NCBI RefSeq assembly: GCF_043381705.1 | Contig: NC_092214.1 | Location: 2,654,579-2,696,283 of the forward strand | Length of the DNA stretch: 41,705 bases | Source of the DNA: Parasteatoda tepidariorum | Taxonomy: Eukaryota | Reading direction: 5' to 3' | Shown: one piece after another, positions 1 through 36,098 of the stretch | How positions within the stretch are numbered: position 1 is the first letter of the stretch | How the letters are laid out: each line of letters opens with the position of its first letter | Position numbers and translations under genes: made by a program | Notes under the pieces: generated by a model | What the model saw: the letters and a program-made list of their open reading frames with translations, nothing else | Database searches by the model: none | Told to the model about the DNA's origin: nothing

Positions 1-31
1 TTTTTTTTTTTTTTTTTGTCCTGCTTTTTAG

Positions 32-164
32 TTCGTGCCTATGCTTCAAAGTCTTCCCACATCTTCAGTTTTACTTTTACAAGAAGTGATTATACAGATG
101 GAGAATGAATATGGATCTATCTTAATTCAATCAGCTCTCACCTTATTGTGCATCACCAAAGAAG
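32..164 (+). CDS. Putative internal exon of the host WD40-repeat gene. A T17/polypyrimidine tract precedes an AG acceptor at 30-31. The frame is open and reads ...MLQSLPTSSVLLLQEVIIQMENEYGSILIQSALTLLCITKEG. The donor is AAG|GTTGGT at 165.
   Basis: A stop-free frame in ~72% AT DNA, a very strong pyrimidine tract plus AG upstream, and a GT donor. The frame stays open beyond 164 to 307, so the 3' boundary is uncertain. Confidence 0.3.
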
Positions 165-901
165 GTTGGTTTTCTCTTTTATATTCTATGTGTTTCACTC
201 TAGTTAAAAAGTGTATTTTTGTTTTAAGTGTGGCAAAAAAGAACAAAGCAGGGATTACAATCTTGAGCCACCAATTTATATGTGTTAGCAAAGCATTTTT
301 CTTTTGATAAGAAAATGGACATCTTTAACTGGGTTATATGTCCCCCTCAATCATTAGAAATTTAAAAAGCCCTTAGTAATTTTAACAAACAGAAAATTCT
401 CAACAATCGTCATTGATGTAAGATCTTTAAAAGTAAAAACAGGAAAGTAAATATCTTTACAGATATTCAACAGATTTGAGAAGCTTATTTTTTATGACTG
501 AAATATAAGGAACTAGTGTGACTGTATTTTATTTTCATCCCCCTCAAAAATAGGACATGTGAGACTCTCAGGGATAGGAATTTTTATTGATCTTTATTCT
601 CAAATAATGTGATTTTTGATTATTTCAATTTTTTTCTTTTGCACTTATATTAACATAAATATTTATTGGTTTGAGTTTGTAAACATTTTTGATCATTTTA
701 CCTTCAATAATCCTTAAATAATGTGTTCCCCTGTAACATGCATAGTTTTTTACTTCATTTTTTGCTTAGATTTTAATGTTTATACTAGGATTTAAAAATA
801 TATATTAGTGATGGTAATTACAGATGTAATTGCTGAAATATCTTAACAATTTTGAAGTTTTGCACCATAATATTTCACTAATCATTAATTCTATTTTACA
901 G

Positions 902-1088
902 GGCTAGATGATAGAGATTTGCATGTTCTTTTAAGTATAGTATTAATGGATAAAGCAAGCAATGCCTCAAACTCTTGGGAAAAAACTATACAAAAATTTA
1001 TTTCACTCAATCCTGACAGTTTAATAAGTCAAGTGACTTTCTGTTCCATGCTCCATTCAATTTGTAATTTTTCATTTAGACAGTCAAG
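902..1088 (+). CDS. Host gene exon, translating as GLDDRDLHVLLSIVLMDKASNASNSWEKTIQKFISLNPDSLISQVTFCSMLHSICNFSFRQSR.
   Basis: Acceptor ctattttacAG|gg at 900-901. The donor CAAG|GTATGT at 1089 matches the consensus well. A 62-codon open frame lies between them. Confidence 0.5.
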
Positions 1089-1382
1089 GTATGTTCTAAC
1101 TGATTATATTTTTCGTTTGTCAGAAATAATATGAAAGCAATTTTAAATTTAGCAATGTTTCAATGTAATTTATTAACAATTTTAAACTACCTATTTTAGA
1201 CATTTATATCTTGATGCAAAAATGTGTTGCTGTACACATTTAAAGCATTCACTTCTCCATAGATTAGTTTGCCTCTGAAAAATCAATCAATCATATAATT
1301 AGCAATTAAGCTTGCCTAAATATTTCTAAGAAATATTAGTATCCTAGTTGCAACAGATTTAAAAAAAAGTCTAAATTAAATA

Positions 1383-1415
1383 CACTATCTAGCCATTAAT
1401 GACCGGACACCCCTT
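1383..1415. repeat. Left terminal inverted repeat of the Tc1 element.
   Basis: Pairs as a reverse complement with 2580-2612 at 32 of 33 positions. Confidence 0.85.
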
Positions 1416-1424
1416 GAGCGGCAG

Positions 1425-2549
1425 GTGGACTCGTCCTGGCGGAATAAATACGGAACCTGTGGTGGGGGAAAGACCATTCGCAAGCAGGCGACGGCCATAC
1501 GAGCCTTAACAGTGAAGATGAGTGGACGGCAAGAGCTGAATGAGGCGGGAAGGGGCATAATCATAGGCGCCCACCTATTTGATCATTCCATACATGCCAT
1601 CTCCGACAAGTTTCAGTTACCACGGTCAACAGTTGGTGACGTCGTGTTGAAATGGGAACGAGAGGGAGTGATAAAACCGCAGTCCCGACCCGGCATGCCC
1701 AAAATAATGTCCGACAGGGATCGACGATCTCTTCGACGTGTAGTGAAGGCAAACCGACAAATGTCGTTGGACACTGTCGCTACCAACCTCCGGGCTGCAT
1801 CTGGCAATGTAGCCAGTACACGTACCATTCATCGGGAGCTGATTGCACAAGGATTCCATGGACGAGCAGCAGCACATAAGCCAAACATCTCTCCATCGAA
1901 CGCCCTCCACCGATTTCAGTGGTGCAGAGCACGTCGCCAGTGGACAGTAGAGCAATGGAAAAGCGTTATGTGGAGTGATGAGTCACGCTACATGTTGTGG
2001 CACTCTGATGGACGGGTGTGGACCTGGCGAATGCCCGGAGAATGGTACCTACTGGAGTGCATTGTCCCCACTGTGAGGTTCGGCGGTGGAGGAATTATGG
2101 TGTGGTCCTGTTTCTCATGGTTTGGCCTTGGACCCTTGGTGTTGGTGCGTGGAACCCTGAAGGTAGAAGGGTATAGAGACATCCTGTATAATTCGGCGCT
2201 TCCCACCCTGTGGCAACAGTTCGGTAATGGCCCGTTTGTGTTTCAACACTATAACGCTGCCATTCATAAAGCACATGCCATCACGGACTGGTTTGATGAA
2301 ATGGGGGTGCAAGAGCTTGACTGGCCATCCCAAAGTCCCGACATCAATCCAATTGAGCATCTCTGGGATGAGTTGGAGCGCCGGTTGAGGGCCAGACCAC
2401 AACGCCCCAAAACCACCACTCAACTCTTCGCCATGTTACAGGAGGAATGGCGGGCAATACCTGCCGCCGTGTACCAACACCTAGTGGATAGCCTTCCTAG
2501 AAGGGTTAAAGCTGTGATTCGGGCGCGTGGCGGCCCTACGCCCTACTGA
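1425..2549 (+). CDS. Tc1-like DD34E-family transposase. The biological start is probably the internal Met near 1518 ([19 protein letters not shown]...), which gives ~344 aa. The ORF is intact, but the second catalytic Asp is replaced by Tyr (FQHYNAAIH).
   Basis: Shows the paired-like HTH N-terminus ([30 protein letters not shown]), the first catalytic D in WSDESRY, and E in [16 protein letters not shown]. The middle motif reads FQHYNAAIH instead of the canonical FQHDNxPxH. There are no internal stops. Confidence 0.85.
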
Positions 2550-2579
2550 CTTGATACTAGCACCTCATGTATCCGAAAT

Positions 2580-2612
2580 GAGGGGTGTCCGGTCATTAAT
2601 GGGTAGATAGTG
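2580..2612. repeat. Right terminal inverted repeat of the Tc1 element.
   Basis: ggggtgtccggtcattaatgggtagatagtg is the reverse complement of the left TIR with a single mismatch. Confidence 0.85.
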
Positions 2613-3544
2613 TAGTTTTCTCTTGAAAAGATAGTCAGACTGATCACTGAAACATCTAAAACTTGTTTTTTCAGTAATTCAGAATCGTTTTAAAACTCTG
2701 GCATAAATTAAAGCTATAACATTGAAAACTTTATCTATTACTTACCCTAGGTCAAAAAGAAATTGATATTTAAAGAAATGAAACTATCTAGTAAGCACAC
2801 CATATTTTCCATTAAATAAATTTTTAAGAAATCAAATGATGCGAAACAAGTTGTAATAAAAAATTTTGGAAGAGAACTAATTCATCTTTCATTTCAAGTG
2901 TGTTGCATTTATGCAAAAATACTCTATAATTATGCATTGTCATTTAAGAAAAATATTTGTCATTCATTTGAGAAAGATCAGAGTAGATAGAAAAATTTAC
3001 TTTTTACTTTAATTAGGAAAAATCTTAATAAATTGTGTAATTAATACTTTTCTATATTTAAGGTTTTAAATAGATATAGATGTATTTTCATATAAATTTC
3101 ATATTCAGATTTTTAATAGATTCTTGTATCTCCTAATTTTGAAAAAGAAATTGGGGAAGGGTCAGTCAAAGCACAGTTTACTAAAAAATGTTTTTTTTTT
3201 AAATTATTTTTCCGTTAATCTAAAAATCATCCTAAAAAAATAAGACTTCAAAAAAAAAACACTGCGAAATTCATGATGGAAAAATAATTCTAGAAAAGTT
3301 AGTTTAAGCATGTTATGTTTCAACATACAGGAATCACCATTGTTTTTAATATTTTAGGAACTAATAAAAAATGTGAAAATTAAGCATCAAAAAACATCTT
3401 ATCCATTTCTATCTCTTTTTGTGTTAAATTTGGCATCTGCAAATGCCATTTAGATTCCATAGTACTCAGAGCAACAGCATTGTGATTTTCAAATTCAAAA
3501 TAAACTTTATATCATCAAACCTTATGTGGATCCTTCACCCATAT

Positions 3545-3700
3545 TGCGCCTGCATAATATAGATGTAAAACTTAATCGTCTCAGAACTGGCCACACTCGA
3601 CTCTCCCATCTTCATCTGTTGTTCGGAGAATCTCCTCCCTAATGTAACACTTGTAACATTTTACTTACTGTTCATCACATTTTAACCATTAGTCCTTGTT
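3545..3700 (+). pseudogene. 3' terminal fragment of a non-LTR (jockey/CR1-like) retrotransposon ORF2. It carries the C-terminal RLRTGH...HLH...C..C...H..H.L..CP cysteine/histidine motif and is interrupted by a stop.
   Basis: Translates to LNRLRTGHTRLSHLHLLFGESPP*CNTCNILLTVHHILTISPCF. This is the conserved tail motif of arthropod jockey-like reverse transcriptases, recognised from memory. Confidence 0.45.
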
Positions 3701-4383
3701 TTAACATCTAACCTTTTTTAATAGCACTATTTTATGTATGAAGGATATGTTAGGGAAAATTCATCATCCTAACATTTTCTCATTTCTGAAAGCTATTGGT
3801 ATTCAGGGGTCTATCCAAGCCAAATTTACTACCATTGACCGGTACCTTCACAAATACTACTTTAGGAAAAATGGTAGTTTCACAAAATACTTTATTTTAC
3901 AATTTCATTTTTGTATCTCTTGTAAGAAACGATAAATCCATATTTTTACCATATTTTTGAGTTGATTTTTTAATATAATTTTTAATTTTCACAAATTATG
4001 TCTAAATTTTCACAAAATAGGTACCACCCAGAAAAAACTAGACAGACCCCTGGTATTTTATATTGTATACAACTGTTTTATCTGATTTTATTCACTCTTA
4101 TTTCTAACCCATGTAATGTTTTATCTTTTCTGTGTATTTTATGGAATTACGCTTTTTATCAAACTTTATGAACTTTTAAATATATGTGTCTTGAGATTAA
4201 CCATTTTAGTAGTTTCATTTATTTTATGAAGATGAAATTGTAGTATGCAGTTTACTATTTGATCTGATAAATCAGATCAAATTTTTTGGCACAGCATATC
4301 CTCCTTTAGATCTTGCACCATAAAACTTTATATTCAATCAATAAATCAACCCGCAGTACTCAGAATACACAAACAGTTGGCAT

Positions 4384-4423
4384 ATATCTTATTTTATTAT
4401 ATAATATCTTATTTTATTATATT
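4384..4423. repeat. Two tandem copies of an ~19-bp unit (atatcttattttattatat).
   Basis: A direct adjacent duplication visible in the sequence. Confidence 0.7.
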
Positions 4424-4975
4424 TATGGTGCTAACCCCATTCAAAAAATAGTTACATGCTTTGTCATCCTTTTCTCAACTTACTATAGAAAAATCAGAAA
4501 TTCTTTTAAGAACTGATAAATATTTAATATTGCTGATAACAAACTAAAAATAAAATTATAGTTTAGTAACAAACAAAATTTGCTTATGTTTAATTGTGTA
4601 ATGTTAACATTTGCAGTTTGGGTTTTTAAATGTCTTATGATGTAAGCTATATAATATCTAACTAATTAATTGATGTTACACCTTGACTTCAAATTCTATT
4701 GCTACCAATTACTTGCTTCCATTCAGTGTGATAAAAAAAAACTAAATATCTGAATAACTTAATTTTTGATAAGTAGACTTCTAATAAACTTGTTTGTTTT
4801 TTTTAAATGCATATTTAATAGAAATTTTTAAATAATTAGAATATTCTGGAAAATTTTACGAAGTCTTAAGATGTTCTTAATTATTAGTCTTCTTACTGTT
4901 TCTTGATGAAAAAAAATTCTTGATTGTTAGTATCCTTATTATTTTTGCTCAATTAAAGTTTACTTTTTTATTAAG

Positions 4976-5085
4976 ACCATCAAGCTTGAGTCTGGCTGGA
5001 TCAGAACTGGAGAAAGCCGTGAAAAAGTACTACTTGAATAAAAATTATTCCAATTTTCAGAAAAGCATGCATTTTCTTTTAGCAG
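4976..5085 (+). CDS. Possible host exon reading PSSLSLAGSELEKAVKKYYLNKNYSNFQKSMHFLLAG.
   Basis: Acceptor ttttattaAG at 4974-4975 and donor GCAG|GTAATT at 5086. The reading frame is open, but a competing acceptor sits at 5060, so this is weak. Confidence 0.3.
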
Positions 5086-5968: not shown

Positions 5969-6322
5969 ATGATGATTTTAACATGCATTGTTTTTGTTTG
6001 CACATGGTTCCTTTTGCACGACAATATTCCACCACATTGCACTCTGATTGTGAACAAGATACACCTTATGAGACACTGTTATACCACTCTGGAACACCCT
6101 CCTTATTCTCCTGACCTTGAACCAATGGATTTTTATCTGTTCTCACAACTGAAAATGAAATTGAAGGTAAACTATTTTGTGAATTACGATGAAGTAATCG
6201 AAAATACAATGAAGCAAGTGAAGGACCACTCAAAAAATGGATTCAAGGAATGTTTTCAACAGTTATACAGACGTTGGAAGAAGTGTGTAGATACAGGAAG
6301 AAAATACTTTGAAGGTCAATAA
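5969..6322 (+). pseudogene. C-terminal fragment of a mariner transposase, carrying the 2nd and 3rd catalytic D (HDNIPPH ... PPYSPDLEPMDFYLF).
   Basis: HDNxxPH and PYSPDLxPxDFxLF are DD34D mariner signatures. The region joining this fragment to the N-terminal fragment has been deleted. Confidence 0.8.
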
Positions 6323-9185: not shown

Positions 9186-10143
9186 GTGAATCAAGAATGA
9201 ATTCTTCATTGAATAGGAGAATGTTCAAGACAACTCATAGGCGCCATAATTTCTGCATCTATAATTGTATTACAATTACATTTCATTTTCTGTTCTTCAC
9301 TTCTTCTCAGACATTTGTGATGAGGTTGTCAAATTTTAATTCTCATGTTTTAAATAAGCTATTTTTGTTATAACTGTTTTTTAGACTGCTATAAAAAATA
9401 AACTGTTTTTTAGTGATTTGTTTAAACCACATGCATCTTGTACAATGTGTTTCATTACATTGAATATGTAAGTAAAGTTTTAATTATGGACAAAACTAGG
9501 GGGAAACAATTCTATTTATTAGAAATGAAAAAGTGTAAAAAATTCACTGGCTTGTAATCTACATAACATTAAGCATAATGATAGAGTTCAATGAACAAAG
9601 GGAAGAAGAAAATACCAGCTAGAACTAGTGCAGTTTTGAGTTGCCAGTATATATACAATTCCTACTATGAGATATATCATTTGCCTATTTGCATTTAGGC
9701 GGTAGGGCAAAAAGAATACTTGTCCTTTCTGTGCTTTACTTGCACAGAATTTTTATTTCAATCTATGAAACTTTTTAAGGTCTTCTCTTTTCAGTTATCT
9801 TAATTGATGAATTTAAAATTTTTACCTTATTTCGAGTAAACAATATTAAGTAAACATTTATTATTTATTGTGTTATATTTATGGATCGAAAGATTTCAAT
9901 ACATTTTTTGGACATGTACTGTTTCTACATATTTAGAGTATAGATTTTATGGTAGGAGTATATTCAATTTTCCAATCTTATCATGTGTAGTGCTACATGA
10001 TGAAAAACATGAAATAGTACCCTTTTGCATAAGCACAAGCTGCAAAATATACAATTTTGAGAAATATATTTGTTTTGTTCTTTTTAAGGGGGGCGGGGAG
10101 GCTTTTCAATTTTCATATTTTTTTTTATTTTTTTTGCTTTTAG

Positions 10144-10450
10144 CATACTACTACTCTATTTGTGACCCTGATAATAATGCGAAATTTACAACTCGTTCTG
10201 GCTATGCATTTAGAGGATTACTTTCTCATTTATTCAATGGAAGGTGTACTCCAGAACTTGCTTCTTTGTTGTGTAATCTTCAATTTCTAGAAGCTTGTTT
10301 TTATGTGGATTGTGGCGAAATTCTTCAGGAGTATTATCTAAACATTTTAGAAGAAAAACAGAGAGGGAGGCGAGATACAAAAGAAATAGATTTTGACGTA
10401 TTAGAATCTTACAAAAATTTTGTTTGTCGTAATCTGCATATTTTAAACAG
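10144..10450 (+). CDS. Host gene exon of 307 bp reading ...YYYSICDPDNNAKFTTRSGYAFRGLLSHLFNGRCTPELASLLCNLQFLEACFYVDCGEILQEYYLNILEEKQRGRRDTKEIDFDVLESYKNFVCRNLHILNR.
   Basis: A long pyrimidine tract plus AG at 10142-10143, and a perfect donor CAG|GTAAGT at 10451. The ~100-codon open frame is of non-repetitive composition. Confidence 0.5.
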
Positions 10451-12207
10451 GTAAGTTTATAATTATATATTTTAAGGCTAATTAATTAATTACTAGGCAT
10501 TATTTAAATTTAAACAATAATAAACCATTTACTATTATTAATTATATATTTCAGACACATTATTAACATTTAAATGAAATTATTTTAATTTTACTAATAT
10601 TTTTAACAGGATTACTAATTTTCTGATGTAATCTTTTCAATATGAAAAGGAGCTTTATTTTTTATGTTTTTTCTCTTTATTTTTTAAAAATATTTTAATT
10701 TTTAAGAAAGTGTATTTATAACTTCTGGTGATTATGTGGAAAGTTAATGTGTGCGAGCTATTAACACTTAAATCAATTTTTTTCTAGCCAACCACAGCAG
10801 AGACTTTATTTACAGTATTATGTCATCTCAAAATCCGTTCATTATTATTGTTTGTTTTCAATCATTATTTTGTAACTAATTTTATGTAAAGAGCATGGAA
10901 AAGTACACATATTTAAAATTTAATTTATTTGCCACATTATAAAAGTACAATATATATATAATTTAATTTTCTAAGCTGTATTCAGCTTCGCACAATAATG
11001 TTTAATATCTGTGTCTCTCAGACTTGATTGCAATGAATTAATATGCGTGTAATACAATACACAGAGATGACACAAAGTTAGACTGGTGGGTAAAACTTTT
11101 TCCTTTATATAAAGCAATAAATTAGATAAAAAAAATTCTAACAATAGTAACAAAACACCAGTAGGTAAATTTTAATAGTAGAAAAATATGACGAAATTGT
11201 AATTCAACATTTTCTTCCCAAGTTCTAGGTAAAATAAGTGATTCTGTTGATATCTTTTCTTCTCCCTGGTTGTTCAGATAACATTAATTCATTGCCAAAA
11301 TATAACTTATTATAATAAACATGGAAAGATCACTTAAATACTTGAGTTTACAAATCTCAAAAGAAAAAAACAAACAATTCCAAACAATGTGTAACAACTA
11401 GTTGACTTTTTAAATCGAAAGTTACTACATGGCATTTTTGTAACTTTGAAAAAAAAGTTTGATGAAATTCCAAACCACTAACCATGTGACAAATCACAAT
11501 TGAAAACGGACAACAATATGCATTTTAATAAAATATGGCAGCAGTATATAAGTTTATAAAATCTCTAAAATATTATTAATTGTAATGTTATAAAAATAAA
11601 TCAAAGTAGGAAGAAAGATAGTCTGAAGCAGTAAATAGAAGCTTGTTTGGAAATAGAAGACATCTGACTGTTCCTGATTGTTTGTAAAGTCATTCTACCT
11701 GTAGAACTTGAAAATTGTGGATATTTTGAGGCCCTCGATGCCTCAGGTATACAAACAGACCTATTACGTTCTGGTAAATAATTAACTAATAATTAGTAAA
11801 TTCTAGTAAATGATTAGTTAGCTAATAAATAATTTTTTTAATTAACCTTTTAAATACAAAGTTACTTTAGTTAAAACTAAAATGTTTGCAAGTTTATTAC
11901 AAACTAAGTCATTATTTAACTAAGTAACAAGCAATCTTAGTTAATTCCTGAGTTAGATATTTGGTTACCTAGCAATTTGTTGTTTCTTTGTAACTAAAAT
12001 AAAGCTATTAAGTAAATGGGTATTTTACTTATTAATTTTTAAATTAGTAACTAAAAAACTAACTAACTTTAAAAATCACTGATTACTGAATAAGCAGTAT
12101 TGAAATTTAAGTATTCAAGTAACTATTCGTTTTTTATTTATTTTTAGACTGCAGTTGCTTTTATATTGTTGTTATTTTGTGAATACACGCATATAGGTAT
12201 AGATATG

Positions 12208-13113
12208 CAGGGTGTTTATAAAGTCCCGAACCCATTTTGATGTTTAATAACTCATAAAATAATAAAGATAGATTAAAATTAATAACATAAATGGTTAGAT
12301 AGACTCAAAAAGTTTCATGACCCTTGTCAATGAACTTCCACGTGTGCCCCCTTCATCACAAGGAGAATATCAAGTCGATAGTCAATTTCATGCCAGGTAG
12401 CGGCAAGCATGTCGGCATCCACAGAGGCTATTGCTGTTGTAATTATGGCTTTTAGGTCATCAATGTTCAACACGATCCTCCTGTAAACATTGTCCTTTAT
12501 AAATCCCCAAAGAAAAAGTTCAGCGGCTTTATATCAGGTGATCTGGATGGCCAAGAAATTGGACCTCCTCGCCTACAGAAAAGACGGTCTCATCAGTCAT
12601 ACACTTAGACACGGTGGAAAACTTCGTTTTTCCACAACTAGAAGAGCTTCAGCCACATGTCTTTTTGCAACAAGATAGTGCACCATCTCATTGGGGTATC
12701 ATCGTTCGTAGTTCTTTGGATGACCATTTTCTAGGAAGATGGATTGGGCGAGGAGGTCCAATTCCTTGGCCACCCAGATCACCTGATATAACGCCGCTGG
12801 ACTTTTTTCTTTGGGGATTTATAAAGGACAATGTTTACAGGAGGATCGTGTCGCACATTGATGACCTAAAAACCAGAATTACAACCGCAATAGCCTCTGT
12901 GGATGCCGACATGCTTGCCGCTACCTGGCGTGAAATTGACTATCAACTTGATATTCTCCATGCGATGAAGGGGGCACACGTGGAAGTTCATTGACAAGGG
13001 TCATGAAACTTTTTGAGTCTATCTAACCATTTATGTTATTAATTTTAATCTATCTTTATTATTTTATGAGTTATTAAACATCAAAATGGGTCCGGGACTT
13101 TATACACACCCTG
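12208..13113 (+). mobile_element. Foldback (near-palindromic) derivative of a mariner/Tc1-superfamily element. Two inverted arms of ~390 bp each (12208-~12600 and ~12710-13113) are built from the 3' end of the transposase gene plus the TIR. Only a ~100-bp unique centre separates them.
   Basis: Terminal 30 bp cagggtgtttataaagtcccgaaccc pairs with the reverse complement of gggtccgggactttatacacaccctg. Internal arm segments (e.g. 12393-12421 against 12900-12928, and 12478-12573 against 12749-12845) are reverse complements at roughly 90-95% identity. Confidence 0.75.
12614..12994 (+). pseudogene. C-terminal transposase fragment of the foldback element (Tc1/mariner superfamily), containing the 2nd and 3rd catalytic-region motifs.
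   Basis: Reads FLQQDSAPSHW ... GRGGPIPWPPRSPDITPLDFFLWGFIKDNVY. The QQDxAPxH and PPRSPDxTPLDFFLWG motifs resemble those of insect mariner-like transposases, from memory. The N-terminal two thirds of the gene are absent. Confidence 0.7.
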
Positions 13114-17637: not shown

Positions 17638-18435
17638 TCAATAGCACTTTCGATAGCTTTTAATCCATCTGTATGTGAAAATATATCGATTTTCATCCTC
17701 ACTGTCTTCATCACTAGATTCCTTTTCCTTATTCACAGTATTGATGATCATTTCATCCGTAATTTCTTGTTGTTCGTCAGCATTTATCCAGTCACGTATA
17801 TCCTCTTCGTTTATTGGCTCAGCTAGTGGCAGTTTAATGACTAAATCCAAAAGCTCATCACTACATTCATTGGACTTTCCGTGATGTTCTGTACTCTGTG
17901 TATCAATAATTTTCCTCAACAACTTTTTTATGGTGTCTGATTTTACTTCATCCCATGCCTCAGCTATCCAGTAGACAGCATCCTTTACATTTAAACTTTT
18001 AATTGTCTCAGGAACACTTTTATTTTCCTCAATTCCTTCAATAAGAAATTTTAGTAATTTCTTTCGATAATTTCTCTTCATGTTCTCCAAAACACCTTGA
18101 TCTAAAGGCTGAATAAGTGATGTGACATTGGGCGGCAAAAAAAGAACTTTAATGTTGCCACTCGCCAATTCATCATCATTCGGATGACATGGAGCATTGT
18201 CAAGCATTAATATTGCTTTCCTTGGAAGATTTTGATTTTTTAAGAATGTCTCTACGTTAGGAACGAATTCATCAAAAAACCATTTTTTGAGCAAATCCGC
18301 ATCCATCCAAGAACTTTTTTGATTTTTGTAATACACTGGTAAACTTGGAATATGAATGTTCTTAAATGCTCTAGGTTTTTTCGACTTGCCAATCAACATT
18401 ATCTTAGTTTTAGGTTTCCAGATGCATTCAAACAT
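17638..18435 (-). pseudogene. pogo/Tigger DDE_1 catalytic domain and C-terminal tail (265 aa), which ends in an acidic stretch.
   Basis: Reads LDNAPCHPNDDELASGNIKVLFLPPNVTSLIQPLDQGVLENMKRNYRKKLL, the hallmark DDE_1 motif of pogo/Tigger/CENP-B-like proteins. This frame overlaps the upstream ORF 18399-18587, which indicates a frameshift. Confidence 0.8.
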
Positions 18436-18540
18436 GCTAATATTGTTACCCTTTCTTTACTTATCTTGTACCCCGGAGCTGACCTTTCATTCTTTGCCGC
18501 AAGAGTTTTTGAAGGCAACATTCTAAAGTTAAGTCCTGTT

Positions 18541-18831
18541 TCATCGCAATTGAAAAGTTTCTCCATTTTCAGATTTTTTTTTTGCAATGAGATTTTTAAA
18601 ACTTTCTTTGAATTTAATCACCTCCTCACAGTCAACTGATAATTTTTCTCCCGATATATTTAATTGACGAATTCCATATCTCTTTTTCCAACAATCCAAC
18701 CATCCACTTCTAGCAGTGAAATCTTCTCCAGCATAAAGAAGTTTATTAAAGTCCAATGCTTTTGCTTGTAGCATAAGCCCTGATATGGGACTTCCCTTTT
18801 CTCTCAATTTCGGATGTTTTTTCAAATTCAC
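18541..18831 (-). pseudogene. pogo transposase second HTH (HTH_Tnp_Tc5 / CENP-B-like) segment. It is in a different frame from the neighbouring pieces.
   Basis: Reads FTARSGWLDCWKKRYGIRQLNISGEKLSVD, matching the conserved F.AS.GWL..FK.RHGI motif of pogo/Tigger transposases. Confidence 0.7.
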
Positions 18832-34851: not shown

Positions 34852-36098
34852 CAGTGGTACCTCGAGATACGAGTGCCCTAACATACGAGTTATTTGAGAT
34901 ACGAGCTGTCGAGCAAGCAAAGTTTTGCTTTGAGATATGAGGAACGGCCATGCAAGCCCTTCTCGTCCTCGGCAATGCTCCTGCTCACCCACCAAGTCTC
35001 GAACAGGACATCCTCGAAGATTTCACGTTTATAAAGTCACGTATATACCACCTAACACCATTCCTATCCTGCAGCTCATGGATCAGCAGGTGATTTCTAA
35101 TTTTAAAAAGCTGTACAGTAAGCACCTGTTCTGGCACTGCTTTGAGGTGACAGAGAACACAAACCTCACCCTTCAAGAGTACTGGAAGGACGACTTTAAC
35201 ATCGTGATGTGCCTCAAAATTATTGATCAGGCCTGGCTGAGTGTTACAACGAGGACCTTGACCTATGCATGGAAAAAGCTGTGGTCTGTAGCTGAAAATT
35301 GTGCTGTCGCCTGAGTCTGTAGCTTCGAAGGATTCGAACCCGAAGTGCCAGTGGAGGTGGAAATAGTGTCTCTTGGAAAATCCATGAACCTGGTGATGGG
35401 TGAGAGAGATGTGAACGAGCTCGCCGAGGAACACTCTCAGGAACTGACGACCAAGGAATTACAAGAGTTACAGTCGCAGCAGCATTCAGGGGTTCTGCAA
35501 GAAATTGGTTTCGAGGAAGAGGTGGAGGAGGTTATCTCTACAAGTGAGATAAAAGAGTTCTTGGGAATGTGGGAGAGAATTTCACTGTTCGTGGAAAAGG
35601 AACACCCCGAAAAAGTTGCAACTGGTCGTACATCGGAGCTATTCAATGACACTTGCCTAACTCATTTCTGCAGCATTCTAAAAAGGAGGGGAAAAAAACC
35701 TCCTTCGACAGTTTTTTTTTATCCGGCTAAAAAAGCAAAAACCAGTGAAGAGAAAAGCAGTCACTAAAATTAAGCATACAGTAGCATTTAAGTTGTGTGT
35801 AAGTTGCATTTAAGTGACCAAAATACAAATATGTATGTACACTTTGTAAAACCAGTTTTTTTTTTTTTGCTTTAAATTTTCTTTTATTATGCTTTTATAC
35901 AATATTTGTCATTTATAAATACATTTTTCTTATCCAAAAACACGTAACAAAAACAATTGGGGGTAGCATTTTTTGGGCTGGAACGGATTAATGGCATTTC
36001 TATTAATTTCAATTGGGAAAATTACTTTGAGATATGAGCAAATTGACATACGAGCTAGGTTACGGAAGGAATTAAACTCGTATCTCGAGGTATCACTG
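34852..36098 (+). mobile_element. Internally deleted Tigger/pogo-family element (~1.25 kb) with 23-bp TIRs (cagtggtacctcgagatacgagt, and cagtgatacctcgagatacgagt as reverse complement). A TA follows the 3' end.
   Basis: The TIRs match at 22 of 23 positions. Internally, the + strand ORFs 34937-35314 and 35345-35767 encode the distal part of a DDE_1 domain (IPPNTIPILQLMDQQVISNFKKLYSKH) and a Tigger-type acidic C-terminal region. Confidence 0.75.
34937..35767 (+). pseudogene. C-terminal third of a Tigger/pogo DDE_1 transposase, in two frames.
   Basis: PPNT.S.LQPMDQGVI..FK..Y-like motif, followed by a Glu-rich tail (EEVEEVISTSEIKEFL). The N-terminal HTH and first catalytic residues are absent. 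Confidence 0.7.

Follow-up and report, generated by a model that had tools for sequence, protein, structure and literature searches.

Structure and composition of the element

Positions 1383-2612 of the window (the whole stretch of DNA analysed, 41,705 nucleotides) are occupied by a 1230-bp Tc1 (DD34E) transposon, which was delimited by an inverted-repeat search, a list of open reading frames, and profile and sequence matches. It is the sole transposon of the window with both ends and a whole ORF, and its parts are listed in Table 1. The two arms of the 32-nt terminal inverted repeat, the left of which reads CACTATCTAGCCATTAATGACCGGACACCCCT, match at 31 of 32 positions and have one mismatch; an earlier reading of this DNA, made from the sequence alone (hereafter the sequence-only reading), had given the arms as identical at 32 of 33 positions, and its TA target-site duplications stand as described. 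With the element removed, the flanks of the insertion site read ...TTAAATTAAA-TA-GTTTTCTCTTG.... The ends were searched for elsewhere using the first 31 nt of the inverted repeat, with an ambiguity code at the mismatch; this pattern was found at two sites in the 41.7-kb window, which are the two ends of the element, and at none in 100 shuffles. Sibling copies of the element, described below, are likewise bounded by TA on both sides. Compared with the consensus of these siblings, the 5' inverted repeat carries one change (position 9, G to A) and the 3' inverted repeat two (positions 9 and 10; alignment columns 1223-1224), which amounts to 3 of 64 nt for both ends together.

The transposase ORF starts with the ATG at 1518, which in the alignment is also the start codon used by the sibling copies L005 and L006, and closes with the stop codon at 2547-2549. 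Its uninterrupted frame agrees with what had been claimed earlier; its length, previously put at about 344 codons, is corrected to 343 codons plus the stop.

The element has a GC content of 53.3% (ORF, 53.4%) and the remainder of the window one of 28.3%. In a 200-bp profile, GC rises from 0.24-0.27 to 0.50-0.56 and returns in a sharp step. The sharp island that had been described in flanks of 25-30% GC is therefore present, at these figures instead of the approximately 55% GC originally stated for the element. Other transposon remnants in the window form weaker GC islands (34-46%), and a pogo/Tigger-like remnant at 17638-18435 has 79% identity to a Parasteatoda tepidariorum protein named 'jerky protein homolog-like', with the next match at 52%.

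Table 1. Features of the Tc1 element and its target site (positions within the window)
Feature	Coordinates	Strand	Basis or remark
TA target-site duplication, left copy	1381..1382	.	Direct read of sequence
5' terminal inverted repeat, 32 nt	1383..1414	+	Inverted-repeat search
5' untranslated leader, inverted repeat to start codon	1415..1517	+	Alignment to the L005 and L006 copies
Uninterrupted transposase ORF (343 codons plus stop), predicted catalytically dead	1518..2549	+	ORF list
N-terminal bipartite helix-turn-helix DNA-binding region, residues 5-139	1530..1934	+	Pfam HTH_SB, HTH_Tnp_Tc3_2
First catalytic Asp, D154 (GAT), intact	1977..1979	+	Aligns to Sleeping Beauty D153, WSDES / WSDET
D224Y, GAC to TAT, two nucleotide changes; clade-conserved ILDN motif, not catalytic	2187..2189	+	GAC or GAT in siblings and outgroups
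Y245 (TAT) at second catalytic Asp position	2250..2252	+	Aligns to Sleeping Beauty D244
Catalytic Glu, E280 (GAG), intact	2355..2357	+	Aligns to Sleeping Beauty E279, NPIEHLW / NPIENLW
3' terminal inverted repeat, 32 nt	2581..2612	-	Inverted-repeat search
TA target-site duplication, right copy	2613..2614	.	Direct read of sequence

Transposase domains and catalytic residues

Domains of the encoded protein were identified with Pfam profiles. HTH_Tnp_Tc3_2 matched residues 69-139 at 51.3 bits (cutoff 31.5), DDE_3 matched at 32.7 bits (cutoff 28.6), and HTH_SB matched residues 5-49 at a score under its cutoff. Using phmmer, residues 114-343 were matched to the crystal sequence of the catalytic domain of Sleeping Beauty SB100X (PDB 5cr4) at E = 2e-42. 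The assignment to the Tc1 family that had been made by eye was borne out by the HTH_Tnp_Tc3_2, DDE_3 and SB100X matches.

The catalytic residues of Sleeping Beauty are D153, D244 and E279 (PMC4820933). Its catalytic domain aligns with that of the window protein end to end without large gaps, with D153/D244/E279 corresponding to D154/Y245/E280, and the identity of the two domains is about half at most on a rough reading of the alignment. Homologous proteins were aligned as a set of 23 sequences, which included 21 full-length homologues, and the D154 column is nearly invariant in this alignment. The catalytic positions are spaced by 90 (154 to 245) and 34 (245 to 280). Around the second of them the protein reads FQHYNAAIH, encoded ...cac tat aac... 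with TAT at 2250-2252, and in the phmmer alignment the 10-residue segment around Y245 pairs gap-free with Sleeping Beauty VFQHDNDPKH, which places Y245 on D244. Asp fills the position-245 column in 20 of these full-length homologues; the twenty-first, a degraded fish copy, has His.

Codon 245 is GAT in the siblings L005 and L006, GAC in the siblings L007 and L008, and GAT in the outgroups L001, L002 and L003. Because siblings and outgroups all carry an Asp codon here, the Tyr is private to the window copy, and on these alignments a single private G-to-T transversion at 2250 explains it. The sequence-only reading had identified the Tyr as a replacement of the second catalytic Asp by one change and had asked that its alignment column be verified; both the column and the single change were confirmed. 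A further Asp-to-Tyr replacement, D224Y, lies in a column that is 95% D among homologues. Damage by a Pro-to-Ala change in the same motif as Y245 (DNAPxH versus YNAAIH) was also considered and was discarded, since the Ala after the Asn is a family trait common to all siblings, which read DNAAIH.

Sleeping Beauty D244A has been used as a control defective in transposition (PMC3936723). With Tyr at the second catalytic position both in the Sleeping Beauty alignment and in the homologue column, loss of activity of the window transposase can safely be inferred by analogy with this mutant.

Homologues and sibling copies

At E <= 1e-20 the protein search yielded 190 homologues, many of them named Tc1 or Tcb1 transposase in spiders (Trichonephila, Araneus, Caerostris) and teleost fishes; the best full-length match has 76% identity. 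The protein P0042 (RefSeq 'uncharacterized protein LOC122270693', Parasteatoda tepidariorum) is 91% identical to the window protein over the N-terminal half; it is a frameshifted fragment that ends short of position 245. Of the first 166 residues, 3 in P0042 and 11 in the window copy depart from the sibling consensus. This Tc1, through P0042, and the pogo/Tigger-like remnant are unrelated transposon families of the window that both have their nearest database relative in Parasteatoda tepidariorum, which makes this species, or a close theridiid relative, the probable host.

A back-translated scan identified four JGI metagenome contigs carrying copies 92-96% identical to the window element at the DNA level, and two further contigs, found through protein fragments, represent the same loci in a third sample. 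The copies fall into two lineages. In the first, L005 equals L010, and L006 has the same element and right flank with a different left flank; the 12 mismatches between L006 and L005 all lie in the first 285 bp. In the second, L007 equals L008 and is nearly identical to L011. In all, two to three copies besides the window one were recovered for the family; they have the same ends as the window copy and are 4-8% diverged from it and from each other. One sibling lineage carries a 195-bp internal deletion and a 1-bp deletion, the other 2-bp and 7-bp deletions, with 1 in-frame stop in the former and 4 in the latter. Among the family copies seen, an open frame and a Tyr at 245 occur in the window copy alone.

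The nearest element beyond the sibling group has 76% identity in protein and 78% in DNA. A protein search with the C-terminal half gave no new family copies and returned only ORF fragments of known loci (P0214, from the L005 locus, and P0255, from the L007 locus). No contigs matched the window protein, P0042 or P0121 when their exact sequences were looked up, and no relatives of the element were found in scans of prokaryotic genome and viral contig collections.

Comparison with known Tc1 groups

The window element shows the TA duplication, the inverted ends, the ORF with HTH and DDE domains and the spacing of 34 that define the structure of DD34E/Tc1 elements. The complete D, D, E triad is absent from the window copy owing to Tyr 245 and is present in the family through the Asp of the siblings. 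Because the siblings carry this Asp, the window element is a defective copy of a DD34E family, not a member of a different one. In its length of 1230 bp, its 32-nt ends and its 343-aa transposase with two HTH motifs and DDE_3, the element is like the short-ended DD34E/Tc1 group (Bari, Topi and neoteleost Tc1-like elements), in which elements of ~1.2 kb encode transposases of ~340 aa and have ends of ~30 bp (PMC6875036). Unlike active DD34E/Tc1 members, the window copy has exchanged the second catalytic Asp for Tyr and bears 18 other private replacements.

The motif that reads DNDPKH in Sleeping Beauty is DNAAIH in the window family. The ends of Sleeping Beauty are long IR/DR structures of about 230 bp, in contrast to the 32 nt of the window element. 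Sleeping Beauty, a salmonid Tc1-like transposase, could be obtained only by reconstruction from dead fish copies, and the window copy, like them, was inactivated by point mutations.

A search of the literature on named Tc1 subfamilies in spiders turned up only Incomer (DD36E/IC), which has been reported from many fishes and from spiders such as Parasteatoda tepidariorum and Latrodectus hesperus, and which is ~1.2 kb long with a ~346-aa transposase, 22-32-bp inverted ends and a TA duplication (PMC6875036). Its layout is nearly identical to that of the window element, and its host range of arachnids and ray-finned fishes is the same. Identity with Incomer was nevertheless rejected, as the spacing is 34 and not 36 and the window protein aligns gap-free to Sleeping Beauty (DD34E) across this interval.

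Base composition, age and arrival of the family

From its GC content, the element had been proposed to be a recent arrival, possibly by horizontal transfer. The sibling copies, at 4-8% divergence, have the same GC content of ~53%, in flanks of 26-40% GC. In the more distant relatives L001, L002 and L003 the GC content of the ORF is 52%, 49% and 46%, in flanks of 18-40% GC. Judged from these copies, a GC content of ~50% characterises the clade throughout the hosts sampled, AT-rich ones included. Because distant relatives in AT-rich hosts are GC-rich as well, the island is not evidence of recent horizontal arrival, and this part of the sequence-only reading was abandoned. The same reading had called for a genome-wide search for other copies, and had held that many diverged copies of the same composition would point to an old resident family. 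The two to three siblings recovered from metagenome contigs all have Asp at 245; their composition is indeed that of the window copy, and this expectation was borne out in part.

Substitutions were polarised with the siblings, using an inferred ancestor built from only three lineages; for amino-acid changes, P0042 was included as an extra lineage over the N-terminal half. Across the three lineages together, 35 changes from GC to AT and 13 from AT to GC were counted, which on a per-site basis implies an equilibrium of 0.31 GC, compared with 0.28 in the background and 0.54 in the inferred ancestral element. Since only ~3% of sites have changed, the family GC of ~54% has been eroded by only ~1 percentage point. 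The island is coding transposon sequence with only ~3% of its sites changed, and is not to be described as recently imported.

The window copy carries 28 private substitutions in 1008 polarised sites, a private divergence of 2.8% (2.3% in the region common to all lineages), and the siblings have private divergences of 1.6% and 3.6%. In the 755 bp common to the three lineages, the private counts are 17 for the window copy, 12 for L005 and 27 for L007. As its private divergence falls between theirs, the window copy is, by this measure, of similar age to the siblings and not younger. Part of the private divergence may derive from a distinct source copy instead of decay after insertion; the inverted repeat, for instance, has an A at position 9 on both sides of the window copy and in L006.

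The near-identical inverted ends had also been read as marking the youngest-looking transposon of the window. Insertion makes the two ends identical in LTR elements but not in DNA transposons, so the likeness of the arms gives no measure of age. Dating from the similarity of the two inverted ends was accordingly dropped, the arms not having been copied from one template as LTRs are, and the claim went with it.

That the family recently entered this genome by horizontal transfer, and that the window copy is a fresh insertion, was judged unlikely. Such an entry would be in keeping with the 53% GC of the element in a background of 28%, far from the equilibrium of ~31%, with copies only 1.6-3.6% from their ancestor, and with a patchy distribution over spiders and teleosts of the kind typical of horizontally spreading Tc1 elements; in sister Tc1 families, horizontal transfer is well documented (PMC6875036). 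However, the clade-wide GC content of ~50% is silent on the time of arrival, the window copy is no younger than its siblings, and with the closest non-sibling at 76% identity in protein and 78% in DNA no donor or recipient is visible in databases that are poor in animal genomes. An equally good fit is a resident family whose burst of transposition dates back some millions of years. A horizontal transfer at an earlier time is plausible here by analogy, as it is for any Tc1 family.

Constraint on the open reading frame

Private changes in the ORF of the window copy comprise 15 nonsynonymous and 7 synonymous substitutions. The resulting pN/pS of 0.63 does not differ from 1 (p = 0.31) in a comparison of low power (n = 22 changes), and the dead siblings have values of 0.89 and 0.46. 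A pN/pS below 1 over 22 changes leaves room for moderate constraint on the window ORF.

At the protein level, the window copy has 19 private replacements, D245Y among them. Eleven lie in the DNA-binding region (E11G, M14I, R20L, G22D, R26H, I34L, K60M, F91L, S97N, R105H and R130L). Columns were scored as conserved when at least 90% conserved among homologues, which applies to 37% of columns; 7 of the 19 replacements (R26H, R105H, R176W, K187R, D224Y, D245Y and L276I) fall in such columns, as expected at random.

Survival of the frame was simulated under an AT-biased substitution spectrum. The frame remained free of stops in 0.21 of trials after 22 substitutions and in 0.11 after 30. When indels were added at the rate seen in the siblings (~4 per 48 substitutions), the chance of an intact frame was roughly estimated at 1-2% per copy, a figure that would cause no surprise only in a genome with many copies. 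The open frame is best explained by chance.

A functional account of the frame would be that active siblings are repressed, in dominant-negative fashion or by competition, by a catalytically dead transposase still able to bind the ends. Analogous cases are KP, a repressor of P elements, and the dominant-negative complementation described for mariner. The sequence-only reading had offered a dominant-negative protein and a newly domesticated one as possibilities, and neither was sustained, given the random rate at which conserved columns are struck, the pN/pS of 0.63 and the retention of both ends. Repression could draw on an ORF that is open, an HTH_Tnp_Tc3_2 match still over its Pfam cutoff, the specific loss of an active-site Asp with D154 and E280 kept, and a pN/pS nominally below 1. 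Yet the DNA-binding half, on which a repressor would depend, is the most mutated part of the protein (11 of 166 residues, including R20L, G22D, R26H, R105H, and K60M in the GRPR-like linker), pN/pS is no different from that of siblings with stops and frameshifts, and repression is superfluous as an explanation of the open frame. It was therefore held to be highly improbable. The fuller version, in which the Y245 protein would be expressed, would bind the 32-nt ends and would serve as a natural dead repressor of a still-active spider Tc1 family, is a shade less probable again; if it were true, an element-encoded dominant-negative regulator would have been captured shortly after its origin.

A sequencing or assembly error at 2250, with Asp in the true copy, would concern one single base and was given very little credence, as the 27 other private substitutions have the same GC-to-AT character and include the second Asp-to-Tyr replacement, and as R176W, D224Y, R105H and others remain even with D245 restored. 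Domesticated transposases typically lose the transposon ends and the duplication. Recruitment as a new host gene for a DNA-binding protein is the least credible explanation, for although the frame is intact with catalysis lost and a sibling is listed in RefSeq as a protein of P. tepidariorum (a frameshifted fragment, however), the copy still has its two inverted ends and the TA duplication, a signal of purifying selection was looked for in pN/pS, at low power, and in the conserved columns and none was found, radical changes have struck the nearly invariant residues R176 (R176W), D224 (D224Y) and R105 (R105H), and several paralogous, similarly diverged copies exist.

Proposed history and significance

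The element is very probably an ordinary, neutrally decaying and catalytically dead Tc1 (DD34E) copy in an AT-rich arthropod genome, probably that of the spider Parasteatoda tepidariorum or a close relative. It would have been inserted at a TA dinucleotide while the family was active, and would then have drifted neutrally under the AT-biased mutation of its host. The G-to-T change at 2250, one of the ~28 private substitutions, converted the second metal-binding Asp of the RNase-H-like site to Tyr, and the encoded protein is predicted to be unable to cut or join DNA. The frame would be open only by luck, no stop or indel having struck it so far. By itself the element is predicted to be immobile; because its ends differ from the consensus at just 3 of 64 nt, an active sibling transposase, should there be one, might still mobilise it.

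Point-inactivated copies are the normal end state of Tc1/mariner families, and the loss of this one matters little. For DNA transposons, the locus warns against taking a GC island or closely matching inverted ends as evidence of recent horizontal arrival. The copies provide a clean read-out of the neutral mutation bias of their host (35 versus 13 changes), with an equilibrium of ~31% GC near the background of 28%. Taken together, the window copy and its siblings allow the consensus of this short-ended DD34E family from a spider-like genome to be rebuilt almost completely, and that consensus could be resurrected and tried out as a transposon tool.

Further transposon remnants and ORFs in the window

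Five further features were recorded in the window, and their coordinates are collected in the table.

Transposase-like fragments and an additional ORF in the window
Feature	Window position	Strand	Basis
Pogo/Tigger-like transposase remnant, two frames	17638-18831	-	DDE_1 and HTH_Tnp_Tc5 matches
Second pogo/Tigger-like fragment	34937-35767	+	C-terminal part of DDE_1
ORF fragment, mariner-like C-terminal motifs	5969-6322	+	By eye
ORF fragment, mariner-like C-terminal motifs	12614-12994	+	By eye
194-aa ORF	9870-10454	+	Weak APAF-1 helical domain match

The minus-strand pogo/Tigger-like remnant (34% GC) matched DDE_1 at E = 2.6e-42 and also retained the HTH_Tnp_Tc5 DNA-binding domain; its nearest database protein was a Parasteatoda tepidariorum 'jerky protein homolog-like' entry (79%), with the runner-up at 52%, a result in favor of this spider or a close relative as the probable host. 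The second fragment (DDE_1, E = 1.8e-8) lies in a 46% GC island in which long ORFs overlap on opposite strands, probably as a by-product of GC content. In the two fragments with mariner-like motifs (35% and 45% GC, in table order) 'PPYSPDLEPMDFYLF' and 'PPRSPDITPLDFFLWG' were read by eye, and a Pfam search returned no match at E <= 0.01 for either. The APAF-1 helical domain match of the remaining ORF was sub-threshold (E = 8e-4, 19.7 bits, cutoff 22.8), and this ORF could be a host exon or a chance occurrence.

Sibling copies and a fragment filed under Salmonella

Sibling copies of the Tc1 element were carried on JGI metagenome contigs L005/L010, L006 and L007/L008/L011 (Ga0068630, Ga0115856 and Ga0181466). 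Two AT-rich eukaryotic loci bearing such copies recurred in three metagenome samples at 99.75-100% identity, and these contigs are evidently host DNA from host-associated samples. L006 and L005 share the deletion-bearing element together with its right flank and differ in the left flank. L006 represents either another copy of this deletion derivative or an assembly chimera. A Tc1-like transposase fragment (P0221) with 62% identity to the window protein is labeled 'transposase, partial [Salmonella enterica subsp. enterica serovar Derby]' and lies on a contig of 626 bp; it is almost certainly contaminant animal DNA in a bacterial assembly.

Substitutions in the window copy

In the flanks, CpG observed/expected was very low, at 0.11 to the left (window 1-1380) and 0.32 to the right (2615-5000); within the Tc1 element it was 0.76. 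CpG transitions made up 5 of the 28 private substitutions of the window copy. These figures are consistent with host CpG decay that has barely started in the element. Asp was replaced by Tyr twice in the transposase ORF, at codons 2187-2189 and 2250-2252, each now TAT; D245Y took a single base change, and D224Y, from GAC to TAT, took two. Given a spectrum biased toward G-to-T and C-to-T, the pairing is probably coincidental.

At position 9 of the inverted ends, the window copy has A in both arms (1391 and 2604), where the sibling consensus is G; L006 likewise has A in its 5' arm. Two independent mutations are unlikely to have produced this symmetric change, and the A points to a variant of the source copy (subfamily). 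Some of the 'private' divergence of the window copy may therefore be older than its insertion.
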